A stretch of DNA of 64,000 nucleotides from a virus. Lineage: Duplodnaviria; Heunggongvirae; Uroviricota; Caudoviricetes. Within the stretch, counting starts at the first letter, position 1. Every line of letters starts with the position of its first letter. The notes under the pieces are model-generated. The model made no database searches and was not told the origin of the DNA. It saw only the letters and a program-made list of their open reading frames with translations. Position numbers and translations under genes: made by a program. The DNA is taken from IMG/VR virus record IMGVR_UViG_3300043399_000700; one strand, 5' to 3'. This document shows, one piece after another, positions 47,923 to 49,092 of this stretch.

Positions 47923-49092
47923 ATGGATAATAACAATAACATTTACTGCTCAATGATACATGGTGGTTTAGAACTAAGTTTGGTTAATTTTTCAGATCCA
48001 CCCGCAGATGATATCAGTGATGAATGGCCTACAATCTTTGGTCAATTTTGCTGCCTAGCCAATAGATCAGAGCACTTTTTAGCAAAACCAAATTGGTTTA
48101 ATGGACCAATTTTTAGTATAGCTCGCGAAGAAAATTTAAAAAACCAATGGCTTTCGGAGTGTAAAACTATTTGTAAAAGCATGGAGGATTCTGGCTTTAC
48201 AAGTTTCCGCCAGGGCATGAACGAAGGCTTAAAAATATATGGAAAAACTAATTTAGCAGGACCTGCTAGAATTGATTTAACTGCTGATATTAGTTGTAAC
48301 TTAGCTTGCAGGACCTGCGGTCCCGGGCGCAGCACATTTTGGCAAAAACACTTAAAAGAACATAATTTAACAGAAAGGCCATATACACCTCAACGCCGTC
48401 CTGAAGAGTCTATAGATATTCTTCGCACATTAGATTTAAGCAATTTGAGAATGTTCGTTTTTTGTGGTGGCGAAACCCTGTTAGGAAAAACTAGTTGGGA
48501 AATTGTCAAATGGTTAGTCGACAATGTACCCAATGCCAAAGAACAATTAACTGTGTGTTTTCAAACCAATGGCACTATGCCCATTGATCCTGCGCATTTT
48601 GAATTAATTGAAAAAGTCTTTTTAGTAAAGTTGCACGTAAGTTTAGATGGCATAGAACAACAATTCGAATATCTACGTTGGCCAGCATCGTGGGCGCAGG
48701 TCACTGACAACATTCTTAACATGCGAGAAACGTTGCCATCTAACGTAATGTTTTTAGTTGAAGAAACGTTATCGCTTTACAACCTTGCAACTACAGATAG
48801 ATTAGCTAAATGGGTCGCCGATAACTTTTCTTCTAGCAGATTTGGCGACATTATTAATCACTCACGCCATTTAGCAACTGGAATATCTGGCCTACACGCA
48901 CTTAGCACAGAATATGCACATGCCCTGGCGCAAAATCCCAGTCTTAGAAACTTAATTCCAACAAACTTTACAGAAAATACAGATGCAATTAAGAAGTTTC
49001 TTGCACAAACACAAAAGTTTGACCAGGTACGCAACCAAGATTTCCGTATTACGTTTCCTGAAGTAGCAGAATATTATCAAAAATTTTGGTAA
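47923..49092 (+). CDS. Radical SAM enzyme of unknown function, with a roughly 120-aa N-terminal extension
   Basis: CNLACRTC (Cx3Cx2C) at about residue 127 and the glycine-rich SAM motif FVFCGGETLLG. No C-terminal Cys cluster. Confidence 0.6.
   Translation: MDNNNNIYCSMIHGGLELSLVNFSDPPADDISDEWPTIFGQFCCLANRSEHFLAKPNWFNGPIFSIAREENLKNQWLSECKTICKSMEDSGFTSFRQGMNEGLKIYGKTNLAGPARIDLTADISCNLACRTCGPGRSTFWQKHLKEHNLTERPYTPQRRPEESIDILRTLDLSNLRMFVFCGGETLLGKTSWEIVKWLVDNVPNAKEQLTVCFQTNGTMPIDPAHFELIEKVFLVKLHVSLDGIEQQFEYLRWPASWAQVTDNILNMRETLPSNVMFLVEETLSLYNLATTDRLAKWVADNFSSSRFGDIINHSRHLATGISGLHALSTEYAHALAQNPSLRNLIPTNFTENTDAIKKFLAQTQKFDQVRNQDFRITFPEVAEYYQKFW

Follow-up and report, generated by a model that had tools for sequence, protein, structure and literature searches.

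Two distinct radical SAM genes with predicted auxiliary clusters, carried as accessory genes by a widespread uncultured aquatic T4-like phage lineage

What chemistry two different radical SAM (S-adenosylmethionine) enzymes might serve in a single phage is the question raised by the IMG/VR virus record IMGVR_UViG_3300043399_000700 (Caudoviricetes), of which a stretch of 64,000 nucleotides, referred to here as the window, was analysed. Two open reading frames (ORFs) are concerned, ORF1 (389 aa, 47923..49092) and ORF2 (301 aa, 54965..55870), both on the plus strand, as are nearly all window genes. Their scores on the Pfam family PF04055, Radical_SAM (45.8 bits for ORF1 and 44.1 bits for ORF2), exceed the gathering cut-off of 29.5 bits, and the core motifs are preserved in each. 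In ORF1 the cluster motif CNLACRTC (aa 125-132, 48295..48318, plus strand), recognized by reading the sequence, is invariant in the alignment of orthologs as well as in that of orthologs with paralogs, and the SAM-binding motif GGETLL (aa 182-187, 48466..48483, plus strand) has G182, G183 and E184 invariant. The corresponding motifs of ORF2 are CNLTCEGC (aa 17-24, 55013..55036, plus strand), whose C17, C21 and C24 are invariant in 29 sequences, and GGEPLL (aa 61-66, 55145..55162, plus strand), where G61, G62, E63, P64 and L66 are invariant and L65 is conserved in at least 90%. The original prediction, made from the sequence alone, had proposed two radical SAM genes with Cx3Cx2C and GGE(T/P)LL motifs at these places, and coordinates, motifs and PF04055 scores agree with it. 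It had also called them otherwise unrelated, which is essentially right: when the two families were aligned profile to profile, the core alone matched (hhalign probability 77.5%, E 1.9e-5, 19% identity, 180 columns), and since the alignment is confined to the core, ORF1 and ORF2 represent two distinct radical SAM enzymes. Both genes are intact and have only this core in common. No third radical SAM gene was found in the window by family hidden Markov models (HMMs) and a motif scan, the sole further CxxxCxxC among 81 non-overlapping window ORFs being in an HNH endonuclease.

Judged by sequence and predicted structure, both proteins bear the hallmarks of auxiliary-cluster radical SAM enzymes of the SPASM/twitch class, with a second Cys-ligated [4Fe-4S] cluster predicted in the N-terminal part of ORF1 and in the C-terminal part of ORF2. 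The SPASM model itself, PF13186 (seven Cys, C-terminal CX2CX5CX3C), matches neither of them. In ORF2 the predicted auxiliary-cluster region (55577..55804, plus strand) lies in a predicted C-terminal twitch-type domain and contains C205, C223 (in KCGP) and C277 and C280 (in CKFC), all invariant in the 29 sequences, which are 47-87% identical to ORF2. No specific family model of NCBIfam recognizes this protein, the best matches being limited to the core and far under their cut-offs, and its profile finds core matches only among PDB sequences. The structural model of ORF2 is confident (predicted local distance difference test, pLDDT, 88.9), and among PDB structures it comes closest to the twitch dehydrogenase SpeY (7wzx; E 5.4e-11, template-modelling score, TM, 0.63, about 310 aligned columns), the sole full-length match among those listed. 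The next fold matches (EpeE, BlsE, GDGT-MAS, viperins and anSME) have a TM of at most 0.44 or are limited to the core. SpeY (7wzv, 7wzx, 7x0b) resembles ORF2 in its fold over the full length, in the N-terminal CxxxCxxC and in the C-terminal four-Cys domain. The four invariant Cys together with this full-length match assign ORF2, at the level of sequence and model, to the C-terminal-twitch radical SAM enzymes. BtrN-type enzymes are twitch radical SAM dehydrogenases, in which the auxiliary cluster is fully Cys-ligated, while MoaA has an open iron site. Nevertheless, SpeY and ORF2 differ in that their identity is only 17% and in that ORF2 has no aminoglycoside pathway context; a mechanism similar to that of SpeY/BtrN is plausible from the model, and membership of that enzyme family is not established.

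ORF1 is built the other way round. It matches the NCBIfam model NF033640, 'twitch domain-containing radical SAM protein' (N_Twi_rSAM), with 171 bits against a cut-off of 170, from residue 42 to residue 385, that is, over profile positions 22-398 of 398. This marginal score is upheld by higher-scoring orthologs and paralogs in sister phages: the orthologs are about 50% identical to ORF1, one of them (P0077) reaching 186.5 bits, and the paralogs of related loci, at 20-27% identity, score 165-296 bits. By sequence, ORF1 is thus a divergent member of NF033640, the N-terminal twitch-domain family. With this family, and with PHROG 14086, it shares an end-to-end match and an N-terminal Cys-rich domain ahead of the radical SAM core, whereas ORF1 and its orthologs form a divergent subclade which, at 171-187 bits, barely passes the cut-off of 170; the family itself has no assigned function or substrate. 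The N-terminal Cys-rich region of ORF1 (aa 1-105, 47923..48237, plus strand), predicted to be a twitch-like auxiliary [4Fe-4S] domain, comprises C9, C43, C44, C80 and C84. Across the orthologs and the paralogs of 20-27% identity the last four are invariant and C9 is conserved in at least 90%, the other invariant positions being CNLxCxxC, GGE, TN, SxD, R252, W257, N263 and D367, a pattern in which the five-Cys module is consistent with an auxiliary Fe-S domain. In the wider family, some orthologs of the L018 paralog have a precomputed PF13186 SPASM match, whose position is not reported.

The best PDB structure match of the AlphaFold model of ORF1, a good one (pLDDT 80.6), is BlsE, a nucleoside-sugar decarboxylase, at TM 0.40 and over the core only, and the sequence profile of ORF1 gave no match among PDB sequences. 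In the BFVD, the model has full-length similarity both to many radical SAM proteins of 'uncultured Caudovirales phage' (TM 0.6-0.8) and to 'MoaA/NifB/PqqE family' proteins of the Vibrio phages KVP40 and phi-pp2 (TM 0.53-0.54); however, the sequence identity of all these phage proteins to ORF1 is 14-26%, and they are equally uncharacterised. In sister phages, as many as three N-terminal-twitch radical SAM paralogs are encoded inside 20 kb (L001:7474-8610 and 11095-12135; L018:577-1698; L021:3145-4680; L029:1414-2481), one type upstream of DnaB, one antisense just 3' of ORF1 and others near the homolog of the helicase at 37520; the L021 paralog has an additional N-terminal extension of about 130 aa. 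Also, tandem double radical SAM fusions of 790-1400 aa occur in the wider family, some with TPR-like linkers (metagenomic proteins P0471, P0540, P0436, P0451, P0490 and P0524). Most of these fusion proteins are tandem duplications; P0524 is extended N-terminally by about 520 aa, and neither this stretch nor the additional region of P0451 matches a PDB sequence.

Both genes turned out to be widespread in phages. The 13-kb region gave no nucleotide-level match by megablast against 50,697 phage records, and the closest relatives in isolated phages, as found by tblastn, are only 21.6-26.8% identical. In a collection of 5.8 billion proteins, 897 homologs of ORF1 and 1795 of ORF2 were found, at least 583 and at least 410 IMG/VR loci, respectively, carry them, and the ORF1 profile matches 221 clusters at 50% identity with E <= 1e-30. 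The nearest homologs of both stem from metagenome assemblies, and both families are already catalogued in PHROGs of their own and, in the case of ORF1, in the NCBIfam model. The expectation that such enzymes would be novel for this lineage therefore does not hold: besides these counts and catalogues, similar gene sets had been described in 2017. In fact, marine T4-like environmental viral genomes carry IscU, A-type carriers, 2-12 radical SAM genes, Cas4, Grx and PaaD, and it was proposed that the viral Fe-S assembly proteins work for Fe-S enzymes that the virus itself encodes (Nishimura et al. 2017, PMC5332604). The window shares with those genomes IscU, the A-type carriers and the presence of more than one radical SAM gene, and a glutaredoxin follows the ribonucleotide reductase (RNR) genes in the close relative L174; the radical SAM families and their synteny, however, were not classified in that work. 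What is added here are the family assignments, the cargo slot coupled to DnaB, in which sugar and amidino enzymes stand in place of ORF1 in relatives, the two positions of ORF2 and the association with GDS-motif proteins.

The link to cellular genomes was approached through the ORF1-clade signature FEYxRWPxxW, run as a degenerate DNA pattern over 185,579 species-representative genomes, with about 17 chance matches estimated. Nine matches were obtained in these genomes and none of the nine lies inside a radical SAM ORF. Furthermore, a homolog search with the most canonical paralog returned further phage orthologs only and no named cellular members, and the cluster look-ups gave only automated labels. 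The viral distribution, together with the lack of a cellular radical SAM match to the signature, indicates that ORF1 and ORF2 are phage-lineage genes and not recent acquisitions of host housekeeping enzymes. Both are carried as accessory genes by a lineage of uncultured aquatic phages that is widespread and T4-like, its T4-like markers being the sheath, homologs of gp13 and gp15, a T4-type terminase, gp32 and UvsX. The DnaB-type helicase of the window is most similar (46-50% identity) to its counterparts in the jumbo phages PA5oct and Atu_ph07. The window is not set apart from its many relatives and is ordinary for the lineage. With hundreds of IMG/VR loci, both families are abundant aquatic-phage enzymes without an assigned substrate; one solved substrate would annotate thousands of viral genes, and would reveal which chemistry, that of glycans, of DNA or of proteins, is served by the phage Fe-S 'auxiliary metabolism'.

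The place of ORF1 in the genome is highly conserved. A DnaB-like replicative helicase (46527..47921, plus strand; PF03796, 76.3 bits) has its stop codon 1 nt before the ORF1 start, and among 80 orthologs with an upstream gene the same helicase is immediately 5' in 72; the two genes overlap by 4 nt (ATGA-type) in 59 of these 72, which indicates translational coupling, the gap being 1 nt in the window. On the other hand, only one of eight helicase-bearing relatives, fetched independently with ORF2 as bait, carries ORF1 after the helicase, and the conserved position does not make ORF1 a replisome component. It is an accessory cargo gene in a fixed hot spot just 3' of the DnaB-like helicase. The slot is bounded on its 3' side by a conserved small protein of 82-89 aa (49111..49380, plus strand; phrog_11854 'virion structural protein', E 1.6e-14), with homologs in 57 loci that are 51-81% identical. 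The content of the slot was surveyed in the 56 loci for which both the helicase and the homolog of this small protein could be located, the majority of these loci having been retrieved by means of ORF1. ORF1 stands alone in 19 loci, is accompanied by an antisense N_Twi paralog in 11, by a tail-fibre-like antisense gene in 7 and by a 249-aa protein plus a GDS-motif protein in 5, and the slot is empty in 3. In one locus each it holds a UDP-glucose/GDP-mannose dehydrogenase with an NAD-dependent sugar epimerase/dehydratase (L178:204-1807), and an amidinotransferase (PDB AGAT family, E 5e-12) with another gene (L121:1357-2403). The primase-helicase junction is a second hot spot, empty in 40 loci and occupied by an N_Twi paralog in 13; other loci have assorted proteins of about 200-270 aa there, the gene at 45821-46534 in the case of the window. 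In Phage C48C1 (Kyanoviridae; L176:3526-5426), a nucleotide-sugar epimerase and a UDP-glucose dehydrogenase lie between primase and helicase, with IscU just 3'. A scan for promoters and terminators gave nothing above the shuffled expectation.

Some inserts around the slot deserve mention. An antisense insert of 564 aa separates DnaB from ORF1 in 7 relatives, and antisense genes of 307-593 aa occupy the slot after ORF1 (L079:11107-12030, L066:1336-2289, L043:11183-12463 and L041:5911-7692, all on the minus strand). The latter share the N-terminal sequence MTSxINPxNIDGxYPVAGxPNNTQGFRDNFTN, and their tail-fibre-like reading comes from this motif alone; the window has a tail-fibre-like gene of its own at 58328-59902, with Mtd_N and pectate-lyase-like matches. 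An impression that some neighbours are sulfotransferase-like ('PRSGTT', 'ENPY') was not confirmed.

The GDS-motif families (about 200-260 aa) adjoin both radical SAM genes in relatives (e.g. L089:3286-3966 and L053:11856-12584). In the window, the 237-aa product of the gene in the primase-DnaB hot spot (45821..46534, plus strand; E 2.9e-5 on the HMM of the GDS-motif family that adjoins ORF1 in relatives) is tentatively a GDS-motif, SGNH-like protein and a possible partner; by sequence reading it has the motifs FTGCSITAGQG at its N-terminus and DNHPGAKTH at its C-terminus, and no Pfam or PHROG match was obtained for it. The family HMMs match three window genes in all, spread over the replication module, at 44087-44845 (E 3e-9), 40175-40948 (E 8e-10) and 45821-46534 (E 3e-5). 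An apparent clustering of the GDS-motif proteins with the family of the window gene at 1261 was rejected as an artefact of short overlapping ORF calls.

In contrast to ORF1, with its fixed slot, ORF2 is found at two positions. Of about 80 loci, 57 have its homolog between that of the window gene 1261-2421 and the gp13-like neck gene (homolog of the gene at 2460), where a 209-226-aa GDS-motif protein often follows. In about 20 loci it occupies the window position, 3' of the homolog of the gene at 54597, and the genes next to it are then IscU and an A-type carrier or, without these in between, a PD-(D/E)XK gene. The close relative L174, whose ORF2 is 87% identical, keeps the window gene order on through the RNR genes to a glutaredoxin and a PAAR protein. 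Downstream of ORF2, after 41 nt, the window encodes an IscU-type Fe-S scaffold (55912..56298, plus strand; PF01592, 177 bits) with PACGD, GCGS and LPPVKIHCS intact, followed by two A-type Fe-S carriers with GCSG and CGCGSSF intact in both, one IscA/ErpA-like (56285..56614, plus strand; PF01521, 67.2 bits) and one IscA-like (56611..56931, plus strand; PF01521, 69.3 bits). The IscU homologs of related loci are 74-85% identical, and the window IscU is 75-78% identical to that of Phage C48C1 and of 'Acinetobacter phage MD-2021a' records. Moreover, of the 12 loci that carry ORF1 and extend far enough downstream, 10 have IscU and 11 have an A-type carrier. A cysteine desulfurase was not seen among the window genes. 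In one relative (L142:11775-12800) an unrelated radical SAM gene of 341 aa, with FCNASCPHC, is inserted between IscU and the A-type carrier. The window also has, at 17555-18622, a 355-aa protein without a Pfam match that abuts an antisense HNH endonuclease (18600-19151); homologs with 26-35% identity (e.g. L085:11306-12289, and L094) separate IscU from the A-type carrier in two relatives, and in another two they are located close to neck genes, which suggests a mobile or repeatedly inserted gene.

With these data, the role that we favour for ORF1 and ORF2, at somewhat short of an even chance, is the tailoring of a small molecule, probably of sugar or sugar-nucleotide type, with Fe-S clusters supplied by the phage. 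In such a scheme, the phage IscU and A-type carriers would help to load clusters onto both enzymes during infection, the 5'-deoxyadenosyl radical would take hydrogen from the sugar-type or sugar-nucleotide-type substrate, and the auxiliary cluster would remove the second electron. ORF2 might then carry out a dehydrogenation in the style of BtrN/SpeY or a related oxidation, and the product could be a tailored glycan or another small molecule for decoration of the host surface, the virion or DNA. Four lines of evidence, all circumstantial, favour a sugar-type substrate: the full-length match of ORF2 is to a sugar dehydrogenase (SpeY, acting on an aminoglycoside sugar) and the top match of ORF1 is to BlsE; the ORF1 slot is filled in relatives by an NDP-sugar dehydrogenase/epimerase pair or an amidinotransferase; both radical SAM genes have members of the GDS-motif SGNH-like families as neighbours in relatives; and a homolog of the cytidylyltransferase-cupin gene lies near ORF2 in two relatives, L142, where the two adjoin, and L083, where it is three genes upstream. 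In the window this last gene (27457-28221) encodes a 254-aa protein with a cytidylyltransferase-like domain fused to a cupin of the mannose-6-phosphate-isomerase type and is followed by a GT25 glycosyltransferase (28230-28985); the ORFs that flank the pair, from 26413 to 32213, have no Pfam match. The sugar module invoked by the original prediction does therefore exist (27457-28985), and the link to sugar chemistry proposed with it gains some indirect support. In pelagimyophages, radical SAM cassettes have been described as variable cargo of the host-recognition cluster, beside lipopolysaccharide and glycosyltransferase genes (Zaragoza-Solas et al. 2020, PMC7029224).

Several observations weigh against the sugar-tailoring role. 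The SpeY match to ORF2, at TM 0.63, comes with an identity of only 17%, a PDB fold search gave no full-length solved relative of ORF1, and twitch/SPASM enzymes of similar fold act on peptides, GTP or lipids. The sugar module of the window is 19-27 kb away from ORF1 and ORF2, the sharing of the ORF1 slot with sugar enzymes is circumstantial, and the adjacency of ORF2 and IscU is not universal. The SGNH assignment rests on motifs, cross-matches of family HMMs and one 'faint' precomputed Pfam match, no Pfam, PHROG or PDB sequence match having been found for the SGNH-like neighbour. Finally, the coupling of ORF1 to the helicase fits a replication- or DNA-linked role equally well.

This coupling speaks for another role, in which phage DNA or a dNTP precursor would be modified by ORF1, by ORF2 or by both, and host nucleases thereby evaded. 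The position of the ORF1 orthologs directly 3' of DnaB in 72 of 80 loci, with the 4-nt overlap in 59, and the module with primase, helicase, dNMP kinase and RNR to which ORF1 belongs would both agree with it, and the sugar and amidino enzymes sharing the slot could serve DNA decoration too. There is also a precedent for a DNA-modifying radical SAM enzyme: in Pseudomonas phage M6, gp53, a relative of spore photoproduct lyase, is the isomerase of a thymidine hypermodification and works with a 5-hydroxymethyldeoxyuridine (5-hmdU) kinase, an amino-acid:DNA transferase and a pyridoxal phosphate enzyme (PMC8989533). M6 gp53 is comparable as a radical SAM enzyme that a phage encodes in the context of DNA metabolism; however, its partner genes were not found in the window, and ORF1 and ORF2 resemble neither M6 gp53 nor spore photoproduct lyase, which is absent from the 50 listed matches of either PDB fold search, nor do they resemble QueE. 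ORF1 is, moreover, dispensable (present in 1/8 relatives), and its slot is a hot spot for cargo in general. Within the window, which covers about half of a genome of about 125 kb, the ORFs scanned include no thymidylate-synthase-like hydroxymethylase, 5-HMUDK, aGPT-Pplase or DpdA. The 7-deazaguanine genes that the original prediction had suggested looking for (queC, queD, folE and dpdA) are likewise missing among them, and its proposed partnership with the 'methyltransferase' at 39052 finds no backing, the Pfam match of that gene being sub-threshold (18.2 vs 26.3 bits) and its homologs occurring in 2 of 162 related loci. Nucleic-acid modification, also put forward at the outset, is possible and, with the expected companion genes not found in the window, rather unlikely. 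In this context, a bolder variant is that the hot spots flanking DnaB jointly form a diversifying pathway for an unusual sugar/amine decoration of new phage DNA or of the virion, made up of N-terminal-twitch paralogs, GDS-motif SGNH-like proteins, the amidinotransferase and UDP-sugar dehydrogenase/epimerase cassettes; we regard it as a long shot, and if it were true, ORF1, produced concurrently with the helicase, would add a new kind of radical SAM step to DNA hypermodification.

Peptides are the targets of most characterised SPASM/twitch enzymes, and a role of ORF1 and ORF2 as maturases, introducing cross-links, epimerisations or oxidations in a phage or host protein, has to be weighed with the same low probability as DNA modification. 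Secondary structural and HMM matches to EpeE, SuiB, SkfB, anSME and PapB point in this direction, although their TM of 0.35-0.44 or restriction to the core compares poorly with the full-length SpeY match of ORF2, and no RiPP (ribosomally made, post-translationally modified peptide) equivalog model of NCBIfam exceeded 28 bits against cut-offs of 300-650. Virion genes are close by: at the position seen in the window, ORF2 comes after homologs of the window genes 52867-54932, and one of these genes, 53590-54594, matches a PHROG labelled 'virion structural protein', in the neck position it adjoins the gp13 homolog near the gp15 homolog, and ORF1 is followed by the small protein with the same PHROG label. 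That 89-aa neighbour is nevertheless helical, cysteine-free and separated from ORF1 in many loci, and no conserved short precursor gene rich in Cys, Ser or Thr is adjacent. Some tandem fusions of the wider family have TPR-like linkers, TPR repeats typically mediating protein interactions, whereas no leader-binding domain like the RiPP recognition element (RRE) was detected, no RRE-specific search having been made. Much less probable is viperin-like chemistry, in which chain-terminating or other nucleotides would act in defence or anti-defence, an idea present in the original prediction. Viperins do appear among the Foldseek matches of ORF2, with weak HMM matches (NF038283, 29 bits; PADLOC pVip, 33 bits), but the former compares with a cut-off of 180 bits, the TM is only 0.30-0.34 and the matches do not reach beyond about the first 100 residues of the core (pVip positions 2-101 of 257), for which reason the idea is not supported. 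Besides, viperins have no auxiliary cluster, as opposed to the four invariant C-terminal Cys of ORF2, and no associated kinase was found. As for host-derived housekeeping enzymes acting as ordinary auxiliary metabolic genes (NrdG, QueE, MoaA, AslB/anSME), automated labels such as 'sulfatase maturation enzyme AslB', 'MoaA' and 'organic radical activating enzyme' do suggest them, and yet the matching NCBIfam models reach 15-28 bits against cut-offs of 126-349. For NrdG, ORF2 scores 17.0 and 17.4 bits on TIGR02491 and TIGR02495 (cut-offs 126 and 131) and ORF1 has no match; QueE gives 14.7 bits on TIGR03963 (cut-off 260) and only E 0.004 on phrog_2076; MoaA gives 27.7 bits for ORF2 (cut-off 284); and the anaerobic sulfatase maturase AslB gives 17.2 bits for ORF1 (cut-off 349). 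It had been anticipated that neither gene would be NrdG or QueE, and this is borne out (14.7-17.4 bits against 126-260), both belonging to distinct families without an assigned function. The argument concerning NrdG needed an RNR of class I without NrdD, and this is what the window encodes, an alpha chain with an ATP-cone and a beta chain. No NrdD, Moa or sulfatase genes are nearby, the ORF1-clade signature is in no radical SAM gene of the species-representative genomes, and the IMG/VR loci counted above lie on viral contigs. A confident assignment of both ORFs to host housekeeping families, the outcome named beforehand as contrary to phage-specific chemistry, was not obtained with scores so far below the cut-offs, and the housekeeping origin is effectively refuted. 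The literature consulted on N-terminal twitch domains, SpeY/twitch enzymes, O-antigen-linked radical SAM enzymes and anti-defence by phage radical SAM proteins held nothing useful for this comparison.

Other cargo of the window was noted in passing. There are three HNH-type endonuclease genes, at 536-1216 and 18600-19151 on the minus strand and at 56999-57607 on the plus strand, one with NUMOD3 and one of HNH_3 type, which are probably homing endonucleases. An SPFH/Band 7 protein is encoded at 35025-35828, a weak C1q-domain match is found at 16127-17567 beside a staphylococcal-nuclease homolog, and an Rv2179c-like 3'-5' exoribonuclease lies at 3367-4582 beside a dNMP kinase. Lastly, the equivalents in relatives of the window gene 10565-10996, of 143-145 aa and located 3' of the sheath gene, have a precomputed Pfam match to the N-terminal endonuclease domain of Tn7 TnsA, an unusual match to find inside a tail module.

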